48,325 nucleotides of DNA, from the IMG/VR virus record IMGVR_UViG_2728369182_000007, one strand, 5' to 3'. The notes below the pieces were generated by a model, which ran no database searches, was not told the DNA's origin, and worked only from the letters and a program-made list of their open reading frames with translations. Both the position numbers and the translations under genes were made by a program. This document shows, one piece after another, positions 677 through 44,668 of the stretch (its first letter is position 1; the number at the start of each line of letters is the position of its first letter). This DNA comes from a virus. Taxonomy: Duplodnaviria > Heunggongvirae > Uroviricota > Caudoviricetes.

Positions 677-2739
677 ACGACCTCTTTTAATTGCCTGTCA
701 TTTAATTCTTTATGCCATATGCGGAAATTGCGAATATGGCCAAACAGATGTCGTTCTCCAGTATTCGTCTGCCCTCCAAATCGGATATTTTTATCAGCGG
801 TCACACCATTATATTCACAATAAACTTCATTAACCGCTTTACCATTTGTCACCACATGAAAGTGACCATCAGCTTTTGCAATACATCCAAATGTGGTTTT
901 CTCTGCAAATACATCTGTCGCTGCGCTATTAACATACAAGCCTGAAGGGTTTGACAGACTCATATATAACTTACCACTACCTCTGTTGATTGCTGCAATT
1001 GCTGATTGCCCGGTATTGGCTGCTGCTATATCCCACACGCGGGGTGCGGCGTTTGGTGCAATATCCCAGTTTTTATGAATCTCAAGTAAAAAAGTAAATG
1101 GTAACTTATAAAGATTATTTCTGGTGGGGATACTAACCAAATCACTGGCTCTTGTCGTTGCGCTGCCTCCTGAAATAATAAATGATGATACACACGGCCC
1201 ATTCTCTACTTGTGGGGTGGCAAGATAAATATAGTCACCAGATACTGTTGCCCCACCCCGCTCAGGAGAATACTGTATCTGAGAGCCTATTTTTAACTCA
1301 CCATCAATTGCCTGAATCGTTGCCTCTGCAAAAATCCAGCCTGTGGTCTTATCCTTCCTGACTCGTGCCGTAATTCTGCCGGCAGCCCCACCTGTCATAT
1401 TAATTTCAAGCGTTTGCGTATCAATGTACGCATCGCCAAGAAAAGTTGTTGCACTACCATCATACTTATCAAACCGTATACGTAACCTTACCTGTCGTTC
1501 TGTTTTAAAACGGCATGAGGTTGTCACGTACTTGTTATCGCCTGAGACATCAACTGACTTTGTTGCAGCAATTGATGCCATATTAATAGCCGAAGTTTGC
1601 CCAACCAGAGAATCGTTGCAGACAAACTTTCCATAAGTAAAACCAAAACTATCTGTCCCGGTTTCGGGCACATCCATGTTTGATGACTTCCCCCAGCTGG
1701 CTGGACTTTCCGAATTGAGCATGTAGTTCGTTCTTTGTCCCTCAATAAGCAGGCCATCACACTCAAATCGCGGCTCATTAATTTCCGCCGTTTTCAGTTC
1801 GCCAGATTTGTTGATATATGTTGCCGTTGATGCGCGACTGAAATTAACCTGTTTATCACTGGCGACCTGAACCACATCGTCACCAATAGCTATTTTTTTA
1901 TAGCCCGGAGAAAAACCCGCAATCATATCCAGTGAATCGTTAAACGGTATCCACACATCAGGCAGCGGCGGCACTATATTCGCATAGGGCTCTGCAGTCA
2001 CTTCCGCTGCGACTTCTGCGCGGTCTGCCGCCTTTTCAGCCCGTGTCGCTGCCGACAGAGCCTCATCCTTTTTCTGCCCGGCCTTTGTTGCGTCTGCTGC
2101 GGCCTCCCGCGCTTTTGTGGTGGCGACTCCGGCATTTTCAGCGGCTGACTCTGCATTACGGCGGGAAGCCTCTTCACTGTCTGCGGAGGCTTCTTCTGAC
2201 GCACGGGCATTTGTCTCTGAACGTTCTGCCGCTGTTGCTGCGTTTTGTGCGGCTGTTTTTGAAGAAGCTGCCGCTTTCGCGCTGTTACCTGCATTCGTCT
2301 CTGATGTTTTCGCCGCATTCCTGGACGATGCCGCTGCTGTTTCTGATTTCTTTGCTGCCGCTGCGCTCTGAGAGGCGGCTTCAGCGTTGCGTGCCACCTC
2401 TTCCACCATCTTTTCAAAACGATACAGTGCCTCCGGACGAACATCATCTTCTGTTGCAGCGCCCAGAAAATCATTCAATGTCCCCGGCTTAGAATCCTCA
2501 TACACGGTGATGGCCCCGGCATGTGAAGGCGGAAAACCTTCAACCAGCAGGATAACGCTGTACTGGCCATACTCGACATCCATGCTGTAACGTCCGGCTT
2601 CATCCGGATTTTCTGAGGCCACCGTGTTCACCACAACCGTGGTGCTGTTACGTTTTGCTTTGAGCTGAATGGTGCAGTTCTGTATCGGTTTTCCTGCACC
2701 GTCTTTCAGCACGCCTGAAATCTGTACTGCCATATTCAC
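673..2739 (-). CDS. stf: side tail fibre protein (Stf-like), 688 aa
   Basis: N-terminus MAVQISGVLKDGAGKPIQNCTIQLKA... closely resembles lambda Stf N-terminus as recalled; Ala/Ser-rich collagen-like repeat segment; divergent C-terminal receptor-binding part. Confidence 0.85.
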   Translation of the reverse strand: MNMAVQISGVLKDGAGKPIQNCTIQLKAKRNSTTVVVNTVASENPDEAGRYSMDVEYGQYSVILLVEGFPPSHAGAITVYEDSKPGTLNDFLGAATEDDVRPEALYRFEKMVEEVARNAEAASQSAAAAKKSETAAASSRNAAKTSETNAGNSAKAAASSKTAAQNAATAAERSETNARASEEASADSEEASRRNAESAAENAGVATTKAREAAADATKAGQKKDEALSAATRAEKAADRAEVAAEVTAEPYANIVPPLPDVWIPFNDSLDMIAGFSPGYKKIAIGDDVVQVASDKQVNFSRASTATYINKSGELKTAEINEPRFECDGLLIEGQRTNYMLNSESPASWGKSSNMDVPETGTDSFGFTYGKFVCNDSLVGQTSAINMASIAATKSVDVSGDNKYVTTSCRFKTERQVRLRIRFDKYDGSATTFLGDAYIDTQTLEINMTGGAAGRITARVRKDKTTGWIFAEATIQAIDGELKIGSQIQYSPERGGATVSGDYIYLATPQVENGPCVSSFIISGGSATTRASDLVSIPTRNNLYKLPFTFLLEIHKNWDIAPNAAPRVWDIAAANTGQSAIAAINRGSGKLYMSLSNPSGLYVNSAATDVFAEKTTFGCIAKADGHFHVVTNGKAVNEVYCEYNGVTADKNIRFGGQTNTGERHLFGHIRNFRIWHKELNDRQLKEVV

Positions 2740-2745
2740 TCCACA

Positions 2746-2772
2746 AATAAAAAAGGCGCCATTTCTGGCGCC
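2746..2772 (-). terminator. rho-independent terminator-like hairpin between J and stf
   Basis: GGCGCC-ATTTCT-GGCGCC stem-loop followed by U-tract on minus strand. Confidence 0.5.
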
Positions 2773-2791
2773 CGTATCTGGGTTATAAAAT

Positions 2792-4388
2792 TCAACTGAT
2801 ACTGATACCGGCTGTAGATTTCTTCATCACAACAACAAGAAGGTCGCTGATACTGGTCGTTGGCGTCCAGTTATTAGCACCATATGAAGAAACATTGAAA
2901 GTCAGGGTGACATGGCCGTGTCCGGCAGGCATATCAATGACTGATGAAAATACCCTGCTGACATCCGTCGCGGGTTGCTGAAAGATTTCCTGTCCGTTCT
3001 TCAGTACCTGCAGCTTACAGGTTGAATACCAGTATGACTGTTGGTTGTTGCTGTTGAAGTTTTCATGCTTACCCCCACGAAACAGAACGGGGGGGACTAC
3101 TATCTGACGGTCAAAAGCCTGGTCATCGTACACAGTGACCGTTATTGTACCGCTGGCATAACTGCCATTTCTCGGAAAGGCTTTTCCCACCGTTTTGACA
3201 ATATCACCTTCAATCTGGTTAGCTGACAGTTTTCCCAGAATCCGACAGTTCTGATTAATCGTGACGTTGTTGAGCGTCCCGGAGTTCGCGTTCACGTTAC
3301 CGCTGATATCCGCATTTTTCGCAGAAAGTCGACCATCAGGTGTCAGTGAAAACGTTGGGGGATTGCCACCGCTGGTAATGGTGGGAGCCGTCAGATATTT
3401 CAGGAACACTTCGTTCATGAATATCTGATCGCCCTGCCCAACAAACATCGGCTTTGTGTTGCCATTCGCAGGATTAATCATCGCAATCCTGTCCGCCGCC
3501 AGCAGCACCTGACTCTGCATACCGTCAGGAGTATTCTCAACACCGGCACCAATACCCGCGATATAAAGGCGTCCGTCCTGCATCTGCTGCAGCTTCACAG
3601 CCCACATGCTGTTCAGGTTATTATTTGTATCAACCTGAACCTTCTGTATCTGCTGGATCGCTGCACTCTGGTCTTCCAGTTTCTTATTGACGGTCTGCGT
3701 GATTTCATTGCTGACACCCGTAATGGACGTCCTGATTTCAGCCAGGTCAGGCGCAAGCTGACCGTTATCAATCTGCGTCCACAACTCCTGAGCCAGATGG
3801 GTTTTCCCTATCTCTCCTTTGAAAAAATTCAGATAGCCGGATGCATCATCACTCGGCTGGCCAACAGCCTCCACAAATGCCGATTTGCCAACGGTGTTCA
3901 CACTGCGGATGTAAAAATAATAATCATGGCCCGGTTTGATATTGATACTGGCGGCTATCCAGTACAGCGCCGTGCCAAGATAGCGTGCTGTGGTTTCAAC
4001 CTGCCTGATATCCGCAATCCGCTTTTCCGAGAACCAGAACTCAAACTGTACCGTCGGATCATAAACCGCAAGATGCGGCGTGGCGGTTATCTGAAAATAC
4101 CCCGGTGTCAGCTCAATCTGCGACGGCGCTGCCGGTGCGGCAATCCGGAACGATACCGATGCCGGATCGCCCTGCTGCCCCCACGCATTTACCGCCCGGA
4201 CTGTCAGCCTGTAGTTCCCCAGCGCCAGTTGCCTGAAGCGGTATGTGGTTTCCGTCGTCCGGGCCGTGCTGACCAGCCGCTCACTGCCGTCATCCGCTGC
4301 CACGGTCAGGCGAAGCATAAAGCTCACCCCCTTCACCACCTTCGGCGTGTCCCAGCGCGCCAGCACCTGATATTCCCCGCTGTCTGCG
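2792..4388 (-). CDS. J: host specificity protein J, C-terminal portion (runs into gap)
   Basis: Translation matches lambda J C-terminal region as recalled; 5' part lost in N run 4389-4466. Confidence 0.8.
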
Positions 4389-26220: not shown

Positions 26221-26700
26221 CTACTTAATGCACTGAGTGCGGATATACTCCTGTGCCCCTTCCAGTTGCATCTGCATCGTCATCAGCCGCTCTCTGAGGG
26301 TGAAATAATCCCGTTCAGCGGTGTCTGCCAGTCGGGGGCTGGTTGCATTATCCACGCCGGAGGCGGTGGTGGCTTCACGCACTGACTGACAGACTGCTTT
26401 GATGTGCAACCGACGACGACCAGCGGCAACATCAGCGCGCAGAGTTTCATTTTCAGCTTTCGCATTGGCTAATTCTCTCGAGTACTTTGCATCGAGCGCA
26501 GCAACATCACGCTGACGCTGCTGCATGTCAGCGATGGTGGCGATCGCCTGCTTCAGCTCACTGACTTTTTTATCACGCTGTTCTTTGTAGGCGATGGCGT
26601 TATCACGGTAATGATTGACCGCCCACGACAGGCAGACGATGATGCAAATAACCAGAGCATAAATAATCGCGGCGACTCTGCTCACTGATCTATCCCCCAA
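26221..26700 (-). CDS. Rz: i-spanin Rz
   Basis: 159 aa, N-terminal TM then coiled coil; contains embedded Rz1. Confidence 0.8.
26283..26465 (-). CDS. Rz1: o-spanin Rz1 (lipoprotein embedded in Rz)
   Basis: 60 aa, lipobox LVVVGC, proline-rich PPPPPAW. Confidence 0.75.
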
Positions 26701-27215
26701 CAGGCTAATGCGCTTTCCTGGTCACGACGAATAACCTGTCCATAGCAGTTATTTGAACGTATGCGGCAATCGCGCCCACCATCTTTTATCCACCAGCGAA
26801 TCGCCTCGCATGCGCCCTTACGATCACCGGCATTCAGCCGCTTATAAAACGTCGACGGAAAACACTTACCGGGGCCAATGTTATAGGGACAGAATGACGC
26901 GATACCCGCTTTTTGTGGTTCGGTCATTGGTACTTTAATATTGCGCTCCACCCATGCCAGCGCCTTATCACGCTCAATGGCGTTGACCTGGTCGCATTTT
27001 TCCTTCGACAGTTTCATACCGGGAAAAACGGGTTTTCCATCCACCATCGTGGCACCCCGACAGATGGTCCAGATGCCGGCCCCATCGCGGTATGCCGTTG
27101 TGTGGTTACCTTCTTTTTCATCCAGAAACTGGTCAAGTATTTGAGGAGCAGACGCACCTGCAGCAATCAGCGCCAGAACCGCAGCTGACAGGCCGTATTT
27201 GATTTTTGCGCTCAT
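26682..27215 (-). CDS. R: SAR-endolysin (lysozyme, phage 21 R-type)
   Basis: 177 aa with weakly hydrophobic Ala/Gly-rich N-terminal signal-anchor-release segment followed by lysozyme-like domain; paired with pinholin. Confidence 0.8.
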
Positions 27216-28097: not shown

Positions 28098-28172
<75 letters not shown>

Positions 28173-28175
28173 ATA

Positions 28176-28251
<76 letters not shown>

Positions 28252-28253
28252 AC

Positions 28254-28330
28254 TGGACCGCCACCGGGGACTCGAACCTCGCACTCTCAACTTAAAGGGT
28301 TGACGCTCTTTCCTGATGAGCTAGTGGCGG
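28254..28330 (-). tRNA. tRNA-like gene with anticodon loop CCUUUAA (apparent anticodon UUU, C33)
   Basis: Manual fold: acceptor CCGCCAC/GTGGCGG, D-arm, anticodon stem TCAAC/GTTGA, T-loop TTCGAGT, CCA; non-canonical C at position 33. Confidence 0.5.
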
Positions 28331-28331
28331 T

Positions 28332-28407
28332 TGGTGGCCCTTGCTGGATTTGAACCAGCGACCTGGCGATTATGAGTCGCTCGCTCTCACCACTGAGCTA
28401 AAGGGCC
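28332..28407 (-). tRNA. ileZ: tRNA-Ile2 (anticodon CAU, ileX/ileZ-like)
   Basis: Manual fold; sequence GGCCCTTTAGCTCAGTGGTGAGAGCGAGCGACTCATAATCGCCAGGTCGCTGGTTCAAATCCAGCAAGGGCCACCA closely resembles E. coli ileX as recalled. Confidence 0.75.
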
Positions 28408-32190: not shown

Positions 32191-32346
32191 TTACTCCTCA
32201 GGTTCGTAAGCTGTGAAGACAGCGACCTCCGTCTGGCCGGTTCGGATTCGTACCTCGCAGAGGTCTTTCCTCGTTACCAGTGCCGTCACTATGACGGTTA
32301 AACAGATGACGATCAGGGCGATTAACATCGCCTTTTGCTGCTTCAT
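32191..32346 (-). CDS. hok: Hok/Gef family type I toxin (HokD/RelF-like), 51 aa
   Basis: MKQQKAMLIALIVICLTVIVTALVTRKDLCEVRIRTGQTEVAVFTAYEPEE, Hok family signature with single TM and conserved Cys. Confidence 0.85.
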   Translation of the reverse strand: MKQQKAMLIALIVICLTVIVTALVTRKDLCEVRIRTGQTEVAVFTAYEPEE

Positions 32347-32583
32347 AGCCTGCTTCTCCTTGCCTTTCGGCACGTAAGAGGCTAACCTACATGTGTTCAG
32401 CATGGATTGAGCCTCAGATTAATGTTAAGCGTCTTGCAGGACGCGTAATGTTAACTGGGGCTTTTCTCTATCTGCCTTTTGGTGTTCATGCCTGAGGCAG
32501 ATAGCCTCAAGCACCCGCAGCAATTCTACTTAACTCACGTCACCTCGCCAATATGAAATCAATCAGAAAGGTGATCCATAAAA

Positions 32584-33889: not shown

Positions 33890-34274
33890 TTACCCCCTGA
33901 AGCCCGGCGGAATTTCGTTATCCGGTTCAGAAATATGATTCACACAACGCTGGTTGTTCGTGCCGCTTACCGGGAGCAGCCAGGGGTTTTCAAAATTCCG
34001 GTCCGGTCCAAAAAACGTCGTCGCTCGCTGAACAAATTCCGTTCCCGTTTTCCCGGTAGCCGCCAGGTATCTTGCGTAACGCCTCACACCATCCAGCATG
34101 GCCTCTGGTGGCACCCCCTCGCGTAATCTGGCCTTCCAGGCACTGAAAGCGGATTTCTTCGGGTTTGCCCCAGCACGCAACGGGTATTCCCGCCAGACCT
34201 GTTCGAACACATCCGGATAATCCACTCGTCCCACAGGCTGCCCGGTGTTTTCCGGGACTACCCGATCGGCTTCC
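33890..34274 (-). CDS. C-terminal fragment of putative replication protein (copy of 46654-47040), truncated by gap
   Basis: Near-identical to the C-terminus of the 333-aa protein at 46654-47655; upstream end in N run. Confidence 0.5.
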
Positions 34275-34284
34275 NNNNNNNNNN
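34275..34284. other. assembly gap (10 N) joining nin-region fragment to a lysis cassette
   Basis: run of N; gene content either side is not contiguous in a phage. Confidence 1.
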
Positions 34285-34374
34285 CCCCGCACACTCGCGC
34301 AGAGGAGTCTCCCTGTCGGGCTGCGGTCTCTGTTAATGAGGGAATATAGCGACGATACGGCGCATCAACAAAAC

Positions 34375-34848
34375 TTATTTCAGGCACTGAGTGCGGATAT
34401 AGTCCTGTGCCCCTTCCAGTTGCTTGTGCATCGTCATCAGCCGCTCTCTGAGGGTGAAATAATCCCGTGTAACGGTGTCTGCCAGTTGGGGGCCGGTTGC
34501 ATTATCCACGCCGGAGGTGGTGGGGGCTTCACGCACGGAGCCTGGACAGGTGGCGTTGATCCGCAGGCGCTTACGACCAGCGGCAACGTCAGCGCGAAGA
34601 GTTTCATTTTCAGCTCTCGCATCGGCTAATTCCCTCGAGTATTTTGCATCGAGCGCAGCAACATCGCGCTGGCGCACCTGCATATCAGTAATGGTTGCGT
34701 TCGCCAGCTTCAGTTCACTGGCTTTGTTATCGCGCTGCGCTTTGTAGGTAATCGCGTTATCACGGTAATGGTCTGTTGCCATCCACAGCGCACCACAGGC
34801 CACCAGCAGAATAACGATAAACGCGGAAAGCATTCGGTTTATGTTCAC
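34375..34848 (-). CDS. Rz: i-spanin Rz (second lysis cassette)
   Basis: 157 aa, homologous to 26221-26700. Confidence 0.8.
34437..34622 (-). CDS. Rz1: o-spanin Rz1 (second lysis cassette)
   Basis: 61 aa lipoprotein with PPPPPAW motif embedded in Rz. Confidence 0.75.
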
Positions 34849-34976
34849 CCCAGCAACCCCGACGAAGACAACATCATCCAGGCCATGGAAAGAAAAAGAG
34901 CAACCAGCATTAGTGAAAATGAAATGCCGACAATTACACAGAGGATCTTCGCCAGCGTTATGAGTTTGTCTGACAT
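34845..34976 (-). CDS. small hydrophobic peptide (43 aa) between endolysin and Rz
   Basis: ATG at 34974-34976 preceded by AGGGAGGA RBS; [43 protein letters not shown]; stop overlaps Rz start. Confidence 0.45.
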
Positions 34977-34990
34977 GCTTAATCCTCCCT

Positions 34991-35137
34991 TCACGATTTC
35001 AACGCAATGACCAGTTTTGCCAGCCCATACAGCATCGGGGACACAGCAACACCGACCGCCACCCACTTAATGGCAAAAGCCAGTGCTCTGCTGATGTCAT
35101 CAGTTACAGGCGCTTTCAGTTCAAGGCCATTTTTCAT
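34991..35137 (-). CDS. small protein with C-terminal TM (about 48 aa) between endolysin and Rz
   Basis: ATG at 35135-35137 with GAGG RBS; alternative ATG at 35173; [48 protein letters not shown]. Confidence 0.35.
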
Positions 35138-35329
35138 AGTCAACCTCAACAGAATTCGTTTACACTTCGCCATGTTCTCCCTTGCCTTACTCAAGGTCAG
35201 AAACACAAAACCTCGCTTGGTGCCAACAAACGGGGTTTTTACTTTTATTCACTTACGTTTCGCCAGTTCGCAGGATTTCGTGTTATCCGCCCGCGTGGCC
35301 ATTCCTCATTTTTCAGCAAAATATTCTGC

Positions 35330-35863
35330 TTATCTGTCGATACCCCAGCACGCCAGCGCGCTCTCCTGGTCACGACGGGATACCTGACCGTAACAGTTGT
35401 TTGAACGAATACGGCAGTCTCTGCCACCGTCCTTAATCCACCAGCGAATCGCTTCGCAGGCACCTTTTCGATCACCAGCATTAATTCGTCTGTAAAACGT
35501 CGACGGGAAACACTTACCGGGACCAATGTTGTACGGACAGAATGACGCGATCCCCGCTTTCTGGGGTTCGGTCAGCGGCACTCTGATGTTTTTCTCCACC
35601 CACGCCAGCGCTTTATCACGCTCAATGGCGTTAACCTGGTCGCATTTTTCCTTCGACAACTTCATGCCCGGAACGACAGGTTTGCCATCCACCATGATGG
35701 CACCACGGCAGATGGTCCAGATACCTGCACCATCACGGTATGCCGTGGTGTGGTTGCCTTCCTTTTCATCCAGAAACTGGTCGAGAATGTCAGGCGCAGG
35801 CGCACCAGCGGCAATCAGCGCCAGAACGGCAGCCGACAGGCCGTATTTGATTTTGGTGTTCAT
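35330..35863 (-). CDS. R: SAR-endolysin (second copy)
   Basis: 177 aa, homologous to 26682-27215. Confidence 0.8.
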   Translation of the reverse strand: MNTKIKYGLSAAVLALIAAGAPAPDILDQFLDEKEGNHTTAYRDGAGIWTICRGAIMVDGKPVVPGMKLSKEKCDQVNAIERDKALAWVEKNIRVPLTEPQKAGIASFCPYNIGPGKCFPSTFYRRINAGDRKGACEAIRWWIKDGGRDCRIRSNNCYGQVSRRDQESALACWGIDR

Positions 35864-35899
35864 GGATATATTAAATATTCAGCCGCTGTCCCTGGCCCA

Positions 35900-36793
35900 C
35901 TAAATACGCACTTTAAGATAAGTCAGCCCCGGATGAAGCCAGTAAGCCGGCACTTTTTTAAAGGGTGGAGTATTAAAATCACGAAGAAGAGCCTCCCGCA
36001 CAATTGCATCCTTATCAGCACCACTGGCCAGCGCTTCAATCTCAGCGGCTACCTGAAGATATCCCATGCAACGGCCAACGCGCTTCATCAGCCCCTGCTT
36101 TTTATTGTTCTTCAGGTAATCAATGGCAAATTCAATGAGCTCCTCACTGTGCTGGTGCGATGGAGGTGTTACTTTCCCATTTTCTGAGATGGTTATTTTC
36201 CCAGCATCACCGGATACAACAAAGGATGGCCGGTTACACTCCCATTCCGGGTCACTGAAATTATCATTATGAATACTGAAACACTCTGCGAGATTTCTGC
36301 TCATCACTTTCCGACAATAATCGTCAAACGCAGCAAACTGCTTTTCATCGCCAGAAGGCACCAATATCGACCATTTCTTATTCAGCTCAACGACGTAGCT
36401 CTCCAGTTTTTCAATACGTGATTCAACATCATCTTTTTCTGACCGCAGTGTTGACGGCGGCATCTTCAGAGAACAAGTAATTCTTCCCGGTAGCTTTCCT
36501 TTGTAGGTTATCAACACATCCTGCGCCTCTAAAATTACGGGGCGCTTTTCCGGCAACGGTTCGTTCCATTCACATAACCCGGCAGCAACATCCATGAAAA
36601 ACTGCTTCGCCTGCTTTTTCGCCTCAGCTTCGTAAAACTCCAGCGTGGCACCTTCAGTACGGTCAAGACTAATCGCCACATCTGGCAACAACAGCGACGC
36701 TTGCCCGTCACCTTCCGACTTCACAGTAACAGTAACCTTATCCCCGTAATTATTTATCCCCTTAACAACCAGTTCATATTTTTTATTCATCAC
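35900..36793 (-). CDS. hypothetical protein (297 aa) between holin and endolysin
   Basis: N-terminal ~100 aa homologous to the 104-aa ORF at 27271-27585, plus ~190 aa extra C-terminal region. Confidence 0.55.
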   Translation of the reverse strand: MMNKKYELVVKGINNYGDKVTVTVKSEGDGQASLLLPDVAISLDRTEGATLEFYEAEAKKQAKQFFMDVAAGLCEWNEPLPEKRPVILEAQDVLITYKGKLPGRITCSLKMPPSTLRSEKDDVESRIEKLESYVVELNKKWSILVPSGDEKQFAAFDDYCRKVMSRNLAECFSIHNDNFSDPEWECNRPSFVVSGDAGKITISENGKVTPPSHQHSEELIEFAIDYLKNNKKQGLMKRVGRCMGYLQVAAEIEALASGADKDAIVREALLRDFNTPPFKKVPAYWLHPGLTYLKVRI

Positions 36794-36794
36794 T

Positions 36795-37010
36795 TTACTC
36801 TCCCCGCGCCGCCTTACGCCGGTCCTCTTTGATTTTGAAATACAGGTTAGTCAGGTACGTCAGCAGCCCAAACAGCAGACTCCCCAGCACGCCTATTGCC
36901 GCCCACTGAGACGGGGAAACCCTGTCCAGCAACTGCAGGAACCAGTAGCCCGTTCCCACCGCTGACGTGGTGTATGACACACCTGTTGTGATTTTTTCCA
37001 TCTGGTACAT
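36795..37010 (-). CDS. S: pinholin (S21-like), dual-start MYQM
   Basis: Start placed at [10 protein letters not shown]... (71 aa) by analogy with copy 1; six-frame ORF extends to 37064. Confidence 0.75.
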
Positions 37011-40246: not shown

Positions 40247-40272
40247 GGAGTTTACTCACATCTGACAAAATC

Positions 40273-40294
40273 AATATAAACAGCCCCTCCGGAG
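40273..40294 (-). terminator. rho-independent terminator (minus strand)
   Basis: CAGCCCCTC-CGGAG-AGGGGCTG hairpin followed by TTTATATTGATTTT on minus strand. Confidence 0.55.
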
Positions 40295-40693
40295 AGGGGC
40301 TGGAGAGTGGCGCTATGTGCCATTGCATGGTGCCGGGTGCCTCCCGGTGAATTCAGTACCAGCACCTGAATCCGCGATTATCCCATATACCTACTCGCTG
40401 ATTGCCCCTCCGCACAGGGGGATTCACCATGCCAGTTTCTTTTAACAAACTCCCCGCAAACCAGACAACAGTCAACCGCCTGAATTGTGAAGTATTTAAA
40501 AATTTCTCCCGCTAACTGATACCCGGCTAACAGTCTGGCGTTTTCTTTTTCAGCAACGGGAAAGCAACAACCACCACACCCGCCACCAGCACACCGTCAG
40601 CCAGCACTGACATTATCCGGCTGCTGCAATGCCACTCACAAAAACAGTAAGCAATCACTTTTTACCGTAACAAGTGATAATCCAGATATGTAT

Positions 40694-41160: not shown

Positions 41161-41234
41161 CGCGCTGTACTGGATTCGAACCAGTGACCGATTGCTTAGA
41201 AGGCAATTGCTCTGTCCGGCTGAGCTAACAACGC
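41161..41234 (-). tRNA. tRNA-Arg (anticodon UCU), CCA not encoded
   Basis: Manual fold: acceptor GCGTTGT/ACAGCGC, anticodon stem ATTGC/GCAAT, loop CUUCUAA, T-arm CACTGG-TTCGAAT-CCAGT. Confidence 0.7.
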
Positions 41235-41247
41235 TGAATACCGATAA

Positions 41248-41327
41248 TGGACCGCCATCGGGGACCCGCCCCCGCACCAACAACCCTGTTATCGTGTCGT
41301 CTGCTCTTCCTGATAAGCTAATGGCGG
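41248..41327 (-). pseudogene. degenerate tRNA-like sequence (homologue of tRNA at 28254-28330)
   Basis: Shares acceptor and D-arm with the copy-1 tRNA but no pairable anticodon stem or canonical T-loop found by manual folding. Confidence 0.4.
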
Positions 41328-41334
41328 TTTGTGA

Positions 41335-41410
41335 TGGTGGCCCTTGCTGGATTTGAACCAGCGACCTGGCGATTATGAGTCGCTCGCTCTCACCACTGAG
41401 CTAAAGGGCC
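41335..41410 (-). tRNA. ileZ: tRNA-Ile2 (anticodon CAU), second copy
   Basis: Identical or near-identical to 28332-28407. Confidence 0.75.
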
Positions 41411-44254: not shown

Positions 44255-44410
44255 TTACTCCTCAGGTTCGTAAGCTGTGAAGACAGCGACCTCCGTCTGG
44301 CCGGTTCGGATTCGTACCTCGCAGAGGTCTTTCCTCGTTACCAGTGCCGTCACTATGACGGTTAAACAGATGACGATCAGGGCGATTAACATCGCCTTTT
44401 GCTGCTTCAT
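44255..44410 (-). CDS. hok: Hok/Gef family type I toxin (second copy)
   Basis: Nucleotide sequence identical to the hok CDS at 32191-32346 over the compared stretch; ATG at 44408-44410. Confidence 0.8.
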   Translation of the reverse strand: MKQQKAMLIALIVICLTVIVTALVTRKDLCEVRIRTGQTEVAVFTAYEPEE

Positions 44411-44668
44411 AGCCTGCTTCTCCTTGACCTTTCGGTCCGTAAGAGGCTAATCTCTATGTGTCGCATAGATATGGCCTCAGATTAATGTTAAGCGTCTTGC
44501 AGGACGCGTAATGTTAACTGGGGCTTTTCTCTATCTGCCTTTTGGTGTTCATGCCTGAGACAGATAGCCTCAAGCACCCGCAGTCATTCTACTTAACTAA
44601 GATTTCCCCGCAAACCGTTTTTGTCCGGCACAGTAAATATCCAACTAAACCAATGGCGTTCGCTGTAT

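Follow-up and report, generated by a model that had tools for sequence, protein, structure and literature searches.

Two conserved small open reading frames with predicted membrane helices between the endolysin and Rz genes of a phage 21-type lysis cassette

The 48,325-nucleotide stretch of Caudoviricetes DNA held as IMG/VR record IMGVR_UViG_2728369182_000007 (hereafter the window, meaning the whole of that stretch) carries two lysis cassettes, and in the second of them the endolysin gene (R) is separated from the gene for the inner-membrane spanin (i-spanin) Rz by an insert of 481 bp (34849-35329). Comparison of homologous loci indicates that this insert carries two genuine, conserved genes for small membrane proteins, open reading frame 1 (ORF1), which abuts Rz, and ORF2, which precedes it. 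The explanation we favour, tentatively and with a likelihood a little short of even, is that the two encode late-transcribed, dispensable accessory membrane proteins of the lysis cassette; late expression, topology and effect on lysis are deduced here from sequence. The insert is taken to be dispensable because R (26682-27215) overlaps Rz (26221-26700) in cassette 1, with no insert between them, and because the corresponding genes of the Qin prophage of Escherichia coli K-12, rrrQ and rzpQ, are likewise adjacent with nothing between. A preliminary description of this DNA, made from its letters alone, had noted a phage 21-type cassette 2 containing two small hydrophobic ORFs, a separation of about 480 bp in place of the overlap seen in cassette 1, and a strong ribosome-binding site for the first ORF; ORF calls, hydropathy and measurement bore out each of these points. 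The parts of the insert are as follows.

34845-34976, minus strand: ORF1, a 43-amino-acid (aa) single-pass membrane peptide (ORF call; phrog_4906; WP_001280932.1)
34984-34989, minus strand: Shine-Dalgarno sequence GGGAGG of ORF1, 7 nt before its ATG and within the ORF2-ORF1 spacer
34991-35137, minus strand: ORF2, short form of 48 aa (ORF call; phrog_1115/4493/3246)
35138-35173, minus strand: possible extension of ORF2 at its N-terminus (MAKCKRILLRLT), which yields the 60-aa form annotated by PGAP (WP_001446668.1, ATG at 35173)
35174-35206, minus strand: conserved leader between hairpin and ORF2, with a small hairpin CCUUG...CAAGG of variable loop
35207-35240, minus strand: terminator-like hairpin AAAAACCCCG...CGAGGTTTT, the 5' edge of the apparently portable ORF2 unit
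35241-35329, minus strand: spacer 3' of the endolysin stop, common to the R-ant-ORF1-Rz cassettes of Shiga toxin (Stx) phages

Conservation was measured on approximately 180 fetched loci, which had been collected by near-full-length protein matches to ORF1 or ORF2 and to which both the lengths and the pooled ratios of nonsynonymous to synonymous polymorphism (pN/pS) refer; the protein database also includes some frameshifted or fused variants of the two. For ORF2, pN/pS was 0.16 in the annotated frame and 0.90 and 5.4 in the other two, and for ORF1 it was 0.38 in the annotated frame and 0.87 and 1.67 in the others. All 106 fetched copies of ORF2 were 147 nt long; ORF1 measured 132 nt in 168 of 169 copies and 135 nt in the remaining one. 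Between E. coli and Salmonella, ORF2 differs at third codon positions. Frame-specific purifying selection, third-position differences and constancy of length together argue that the insert is not an untranslated spacer. The preliminary description had allowed that it might be a common untranslated spacer of related phages; set beside related cassettes, the insert proved to be common, yet coding by pN/pS. Identical DNA (100%) occurs in many E. coli chromosomes, where PGAP annotates WP_001446668.1 and WP_001280932.1 as hypothetical proteins.

ORF1 begins with an ATG at 34976 and ends with a TGA at 34845-34847. Its product is identical to RefSeq WP_001280932.1, is homologous to ECs_5707 of Sakai prophage Sp5 and matches the PHROG profile phrog_4906 (E=2.1e-23); against Pfam and NCBIfam nothing was significant, the best match being a sub-threshold one to DUF3930 (E=0.08). 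The peptide has a short basic N-terminus (K4, K10) followed by a strongly hydrophobic, uncharged stretch of 33 residues, with a maximal 19-residue Kyte-Doolittle hydropathy of 2.89, and its C-terminus, SSSGLLG, forms no highly charged tail. The spacer between ORF2 and ORF1 is 14 nt long and recurs in 89 of the 106 fetched ORF2 copies. At the other end, the TGA of ORF1 overlaps the GTG of Rz (GGGGTGA), and in all variants of ORF1 the stop either overlaps the Rz GTG or falls 9-12 nt before an ATG. With so little distance between the two genes (an overlap, or at most 12 nt), translation of ORF1 is probably coupled to that of the i-spanin.

The short form of ORF2 begins with an ATG at 35137, which has GAGG 6 nt upstream, and ends at 34991-34993. 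ORF2 could in fact be 60 rather than 48 aa long. The GAGG of the internal ATG lies inside the extension, the longer form adds basic residues, and the extension frame is open in all lineages examined. The C-terminal membrane helix previously ascribed to this ORF stood up, whereas its length of 48 aa is uncertain in view of the PGAP form. As a profile match to phrog_1115, the short form scored E=1.7e-33 and the 60-aa form 3.7e-42; no Pfam or NCBIfam family was found at E<=0.1. The C-terminal half is hydrophobic, more weakly than ORF1 (maximal 19-residue hydropathy 1.88), and is broken by lysines; the C-terminus is ALKS, again with no highly charged tail. An AlphaFold2 model gave one continuous helix over residues 3-47, with a predicted local distance difference test score of 85. 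Conservation within the family is concentrated in the N-terminal 24 residues, a hydrophilic head (MKNGLExxAPVTxEIS..A.AI[K/R]) that is acidic in most variants, and the membrane tail varies. A resemblance of the ORF2 helix to the second transmembrane domain of the holin S21 (16 residues, BLASTP E=0.003), to which a chimeric database protein had also drawn attention, was rejected as homology, the helix being the variable part of the family, and is probably compositional. Neither ORF has a paralogue that could be found elsewhere in the window.

Both families are widespread, to different extents. ORF1 is present in 1750 of 5426 complete E. coli genomes (~32%), with a maximum of 11 copies in one genome. 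It also occurs in 276 phage records, among them 933W, phi24B, Min27, Stx2 phage 86, P27 and Shigella Stx phages; in most of these 276 records it is unannotated. Its homologues number 129, and every one with a named source comes from E. coli. ORF2 together with its leader was found in 1044 genomes (coverage >=80%) and in only 12 phage records. The 122 homologues of ORF2 include named sources in E. coli, E. marmotae and Salmonella, and one labelled Pseudomonas aeruginosa. A profile search of 1.84 billion representative proteins returned merely 18 ORF2 relatives; scanning genome contigs with an ORF2 alignment confirmed none, and a second contig scan with the distant homologue P0247 as query yielded one locus, in Lelliottia.

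Wherever the flanking sequence sufficed, ORF1 lay directly upstream of Rz and was preceded by ORF2 or by a moron-like ant gene, although this linkage is a biased estimate, the fetched loci having been chosen for carrying ORF1 or ORF2. The one exception was a cassette with a GH108 endolysin, in which ORF1 precedes a 60-aa lipoprotein. The architectures encountered were R-ORF2-ORF1-Rz, R-Ant-ORF1-Rz, Salmonella SAR (signal-anchor-release) lysozyme-ORF2-Rz, and a GH108, M15 or GH19 endolysin followed by ORF2, sometimes by ORF1 or ORF3, and then by a small lipoprotein. ORF2 thus occurs downstream of at least six endolysin types (R21-type, Salmonella SAR, GH108, M15, lambda-R-type and GH19), and in lysis cassettes the next gene after it is Rz, a small lipoprotein or another mini-ORF. 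In every ORF2 context, homology begins exactly at the hairpin at 35207-35240 and continues through a leader of about 70 nt into ORF2; by this comparison, hairpin, leader and ORF2 move together as one self-contained unit. In every lineage examined the stem is flanked by an A-tract on its 5' side and a T-tract on its 3' side, and for this reason the hairpin looks bidirectional and could terminate transcription in both directions. Elsewhere its stem is kept by compensatory differences (CCCCG/CGGGG, CGCCCG/CGGGCG, GGCCC/GGGCC).

Under the explanation we favour, ORF1 and ORF2 would share the Q-dependent late transcript with the lysis genes. ORF1, with a predicted cytoplasmic N-terminus and one hydrophobic helix, would act as a partner gene of the i-spanin, and ORF2 would be a tail-anchored peptide and a portable accessory unit, inserted downstream of many kinds of endolysin. 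Both peptides would enter the inner membrane at a late stage of infection and there alter when, or how efficiently, the envelope is disrupted, possibly through helix-helix or head-group contacts with the pinholin, with the membrane-tethered SAR endolysin or with the membrane anchor of Rz. The lysis-tuning role is suggested by the operon structure and by the recurrent lysis-cassette context, and of the three functions that the preliminary description had offered (lysis modulator, type I toxin-like peptide, exclusion factor) these same features make it the best supported, although computation did not discriminate among them.

An antisense element within the ORF2 unit was also considered. A search for sigma-70-like promoters gave none on either strand of window positions 34300-35900 and none on the sense strand in three other contexts (L053, L084 and L087, these being handles of fetched loci). 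A promoter-like site reading against ORF2 was, however, flagged at the homologous position in those three loci, of which L053 is from E. coli and L084 and L087 are from Salmonella; it has the form TAGTCA-18-TATACT or TTGGCC-16-TATACT and is the sole, or one of two, promoter-like sites flagged there, the matches in L053 and L084 not being independent of each other. The elements proposed for the window are the following.

35137-35166, plus strand: candidate antisense sigma-70 promoter TAGTCA-18 nt-TACACT, proposed by homology and not flagged in the window
35173-35252, plus strand: hypothetical cis-antisense RNA of ~75-80 nt, able to pair with the leader of ORF2 and with its upstream ATG

The window candidate matches at 8 of 12 positions. 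Its -10 element is TACACT, compared with TATACT or TATAAT in 13 of 13 other lineages examined; in those 13 the Tyr codon that overlaps the -10 is TAT, not TAC, and in the window the codon is TGT (Cys). Synonymous divergence was 0.21 in the 30-nt extension block that holds the antisense -10, as against 0.54 in the ORF2 body, a difference that points to nucleotide-level constraint, and the 10-codon extension shows weak coding periodicity. The hypothetical RNA, 70-100 nt long if begun at the promoter-like site, would end at the hairpin and its U-tract; it folds as a 5' stem-loop plus terminator (z = -2.06), an architecture seen in 14 of 14 lineages folded, and the fold of the sense leader with ORF2 is unremarkable (z = -0.72). 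A search of the insert against Rfam at E<=10 gave a chance match of the rimP leader to the hairpin alone (E=1.5), and no published small RNA (sRNA) matched the candidate antisense region. The prophage anti-sRNAs AsxR and AgvB and the Pas sRNAs were rejected as identities of the hairpin region, being located upstream of the holin near the esterase gene. Taken together, these features are no more than suggestive of an ORF2 antisense element.

Several observations weigh against a dedicated role in lysis. Morons are known to insert often at the end of the lysis cassette, so guilt by association is weak evidence here, and the sampling bias in the ORF1-Rz linkage has already been mentioned. ORF2 units are also found outside lysis cassettes, behind tail-fibre genes (L087/L088, L183/L184) and, in L187, in the interval from the major tail protein to the tail chaperones; such positions suit a free-standing moron more than a gene dedicated to lysis. 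The G+C content of the insert is 0.47, lower than the 0.55 of R and Rz; ORF1 is under no more than moderate purifying selection and varies in its C-terminal third; and neither ORF showed similarity to characterised holin, antiholin, releasin or spanin families. The locus had no entry in the supplements of Sakai ribosome profiling, of Hfq crosslinking and immunoprecipitation in enterohaemorrhagic E. coli or of a Salmonella small-protein census, and literature searches by accession or peptide string for ORF1 and ORF2 found no mention and no functional or descriptive study. It is possible, if on balance unlikely, that the ORFs are lysogenic-conversion morons, made in the prophage state and acting, for example, by blocking the entry of superinfecting DNA or, in the manner of the host's own small proteins MgrB and AcrZ, by modulating a membrane protein of the host; the lysis cassette would then merely be a tolerated insertion site. 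The insert has the form of a moron, in that it is additional DNA separating genes that adjoin each other in related phages (cassette 1, Qin), has a lower G+C than its neighbours and occupies a slot that alternatively holds other small ORFs, the moron-like ant in Stx phages or a methyltransferase-like gene in L188; moreover, the ORF2 unit is sharply bounded by the terminator hairpin and in tail-gene regions sometimes has a second terminator after it (L087, L187, at the 3' edge). Against morons expressed in a lysogen, no sense promoter turned up upstream of ORF1 or in the stretch from hairpin to ORF2 in any of the lineages scanned, the hairpin would block readthrough into ORF2, and ORF1 is tightly packed against Rz. 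PADLOC defence profiles matched neither ORF at E<=1, and the exclusion-factor suggestion is on this evidence neither supported nor excluded.

The antisense element raises the further prospect, which we consider quite unlikely, that ORF2 is the toxin of a type I-like, antisense-guarded module of which ORF1 is not a part. The antisense RNA, of about 75-100 nt, would start in the first codons of the long ORF2, pair with the leader and the upstream start and end at the hairpin, silencing leaky ORF2 expression in lysogens until the late transcript overrides it. Such a module would account for the promoter-like site at the same position in three contexts, the conserved -10 with its TAT codon, the low synonymous divergence, the uniform RNA architecture, the partial tandem duplication of the module in L053, and the retention of both A-tract and T-tract in every lineage, including those (L087, L183/L184, L187) in which a separate terminator already closes the upstream operon before the hairpin. 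On the other side, no Rfam family matches, the -10 in the window is weaker, G-U wobble pairs in the inner hairpin stem are mostly such as to help the sense strand fold, the interval from hairpin to ORF2 is too short for a toxin promoter, conservation of the block could stem from the internal-start Shine-Dalgarno sequence and possible coding, and two of the three promoter matches are not independent. For the type I suggestion of the preliminary description, the outcome was split: ORF1, which is packed at Rz, has a canonical Shine-Dalgarno sequence and showed no promoter or antisense element, gained no support, whereas the bidirectional terminator and the antisense site keep the idea suggestive for ORF2. 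A bolder proposal, unlikely as it stands, would treat the R-Rz junction as a dedicated slot for unrecognised mini membrane proteins with control over the final stages of lysis, with the ORF2 unit a portable, self-silencing toxin cassette (bidirectional terminator, cis-antisense RNA and toxic tail-anchored peptide) hitchhiking in Escherichia, Salmonella, Lelliottia and related genera. That the ORFs have no peptide function at all, being chance frames in a recombination scar or frames translated only to couple ribosomes to Rz, is highly improbable. Their shortness, the variability of ORF1 in its C-terminal part and the way in which several small ORFs of unrelated sequence stop at this very Rz start, some in RWW from GGTGGTGA, would agree with it, but this reading sits poorly with frame-specific purifying selection, constant length over hundreds of copies, conservation of ORF2 in E. 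coli, Salmonella, Lelliottia and contexts without Rz, and a hydrophobic helix kept in every family.

Comparison with characterised systems places both ORFs in catalogued families of hypothetical proteins (ORF1 in phrog_4906, ORF2 in phrog_1115) and outside the known lysis families. As to holins and antiholins, neither has a PF04971 match or a charged C-terminal tail; as to releasins, neither matches DUF2730 and the lengths are 43 and 48-60 aa; as to spanins, neither has a periplasmic domain or a lipobox, and the cassette already has Rz and Rz1. Both ORFs have the size (<~60 aa) and hydrophobicity of type I toxins; the own promoter and structured 5' untranslated region of such toxins were not found, and canonical Shine-Dalgarno sites are present. 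No toxin Pfam or antitoxin Rfam family matched ORF1 or ORF2, and a sequence search of the PDB gave sub-threshold chance matches only (best E=0.0094).

A possible parallel for the explanation we favour is LysA of phage P2, a dispensable protein of ~141 aa with several membrane helices that is presumed to tune the timing of lysis. LysA reportedly lies between the endolysin K and the Rz-like lysB, an arrangement said to have been described by Ziermann et al. in J Bacteriol in 1994. Its analogy to the insert would lie in the slot between endolysin and i-spanin and in the encoding of dispensable membrane proteins; it differs in being longer and multi-helical, beside the 43-aa ORF1 and the 48/60-aa ORF2, and we know of no sequence relation between LysA and either ORF. 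Antiholins and dual-start holins (S21 71/68, lambda S107/S105) are likewise small inner-membrane proteins of the same operon, and ORF2 similarly has two in-frame starts; ORF1 and ORF2 differ from them in lacking PF04971 and the charged tail. The Mu releasin gp25 is a 99-aa protein of N-out/C-in topology with a 73-aa cytoplasmic domain (DUF2730), and the basic N-terminus of the SAR endolysin has been proposed as the target of its acidic soluble part (PMC9239132). It resembles ORF2 in being membrane-tethered and encoded near a SAR endolysin, and the ORF2 head too is acidic in most variants, but ORF2 also accompanies endolysins that are not of the SAR type. With hok/sok, ibs/sib and symE/symR the ORFs have in common the small hydrophobic peptide and, for the 5' region of ORF2, a candidate antisense promoter and terminator, whereas they differ in lying within an operon, in their exposed canonical Shine-Dalgarno sequences and in the lack of a detected toxin promoter. 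With bor, lom and the ant of the Stx R-Rz slot they have in common insertion between normally adjacent genes, lower G+C and a terminator at one edge; they differ in that no promoter of its own was detected for the insert and ORF1 appears tightly coupled to Rz.

The ORF1 and ORF2 families are already catalogued as hypothetical proteins, and descriptive or functional literature on them was not found. A survey of 279 Stx phages describes their lysis cassette as S, R and Rz/Rz1 only (PMC8136144), and yet ORF1 sits in the lysis cassette of medically important Stx phages (933W, phi24B, Sakai Sp5). Were the peptides to tune lysis timing or spanin action, burst size and lysis-dependent toxin release would be affected and a component would be added to the pinholin/SAR endolysin/spanin model of lysis; were ORF2 to have its own antisense RNA, it would constitute a toxin-like module that is both new and mobile. 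Should neither be the case, the two are phage genes of an ordinary kind. The value of the locus lies chiefly in how common ORF1 is among Stx phages and in the antisense element that ORF2 may have.

The remainder of cassette 2 is arranged on the minus strand in the order holin, DUF1327 ORF, SAR endolysin, insert and Rz/Rz1.

36795-37010, minus strand: S21-type class II holin (pinholin family PF04971; Pfam E=1.5e-32)
35900-36793, minus strand: DUF1327-containing ORF of 297 aa, between holin and endolysin
35330-35863, minus strand: R21-type SAR endolysin of 177 aa (Phage_lysozyme PF00959; Pfam and ORF call)
34375-34848, minus strand: Rz i-spanin (PF03245), with a GTG start; PGAP prefers the ATG at 34833
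34437-34622, minus strand: Rz1 lipoprotein, embedded in Rz (ORF call)

The N-terminal segment of this endolysin is SAR-like and rich in Gly and Ala. The 297-aa ORF is intact, with an N-terminal DUF1327/YdfR domain and a full-length match to phrog_1085; in identical DNA, PGAP annotates merely a truncated YdfR pseudogene. Immediately at the end of Rz begins a 165-aa ORF (33890-34387) that contains a run of 10 N at 34276-34285. Because replication-type ORFs, not terminase genes, follow cassette 2, the second prophage seems to be truncated or recombined just after Rz.

The slot before Rz is filled in other E. coli prophages by hydrophobic mini-ORFs of other kinds. In L181 (2642-2755) there is a 37-aa relative of ORF2 (WP_000675931.1), in L182 (~2580-2718) an unrelated, unannotated hydrophobic ORF of 45 aa, and in L053 (2426-2646) a partial tandem duplicate of ORF2; several such mini-ORFs end in RWW, encoded by the Rz ribosome-binding site. 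A 327-aa ORF, by appearance a putative DNA methyltransferase, is inserted between the ORF2 homologue and Rz in the Salmonella-like cassette of L188 (3125-4108) and starts at the same GGTGGTGAcATG junction. The spacer of about 90 nt after the endolysin stop is common to ORF2-type and ant-type cassettes; in the latter, as in Stx2 phage 86 (L003, 1690-1720), it is followed by another hairpin, GGCACC...GGTGCC with a T-run, that is terminator-like on the sense strand only. Loci L171, L172, L174 and L175 (~2650-3000) and L185 (3156-3335) have GH108, M15 or GH19 endolysins and no recognisable Rz; there, ORF2, ORF1 or ORF3 peptides are followed by a lipobox lipoprotein of ~60 aa, which belongs to phrog_7528 except in L185, where it is an unrelated one. 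This lipoprotein may be an unrecognised outer-membrane component of lysis.

Elsewhere in the window, full-length matches to Rfam sok at 32341-32516 (minus strand, 120.5 bits) and 44408-44579 (minus strand, 106.7 bits) point to two hok/sok type I loci, one per prophage segment. Clusters of tRNA genes lie upstream of both lysis cassettes, five at 28101-28407 and two at 41161-41410, all on the minus strand; the tRNA cluster site downstream of Q is the usual moron region. Upstream of a 658-aa esterase-like ORF, positions 40272-40461 (minus strand) gave a full-length match (132 bits) to the sRNA STnc100, which a 2026 preprint has linked to the prophage PasD sRNAs.

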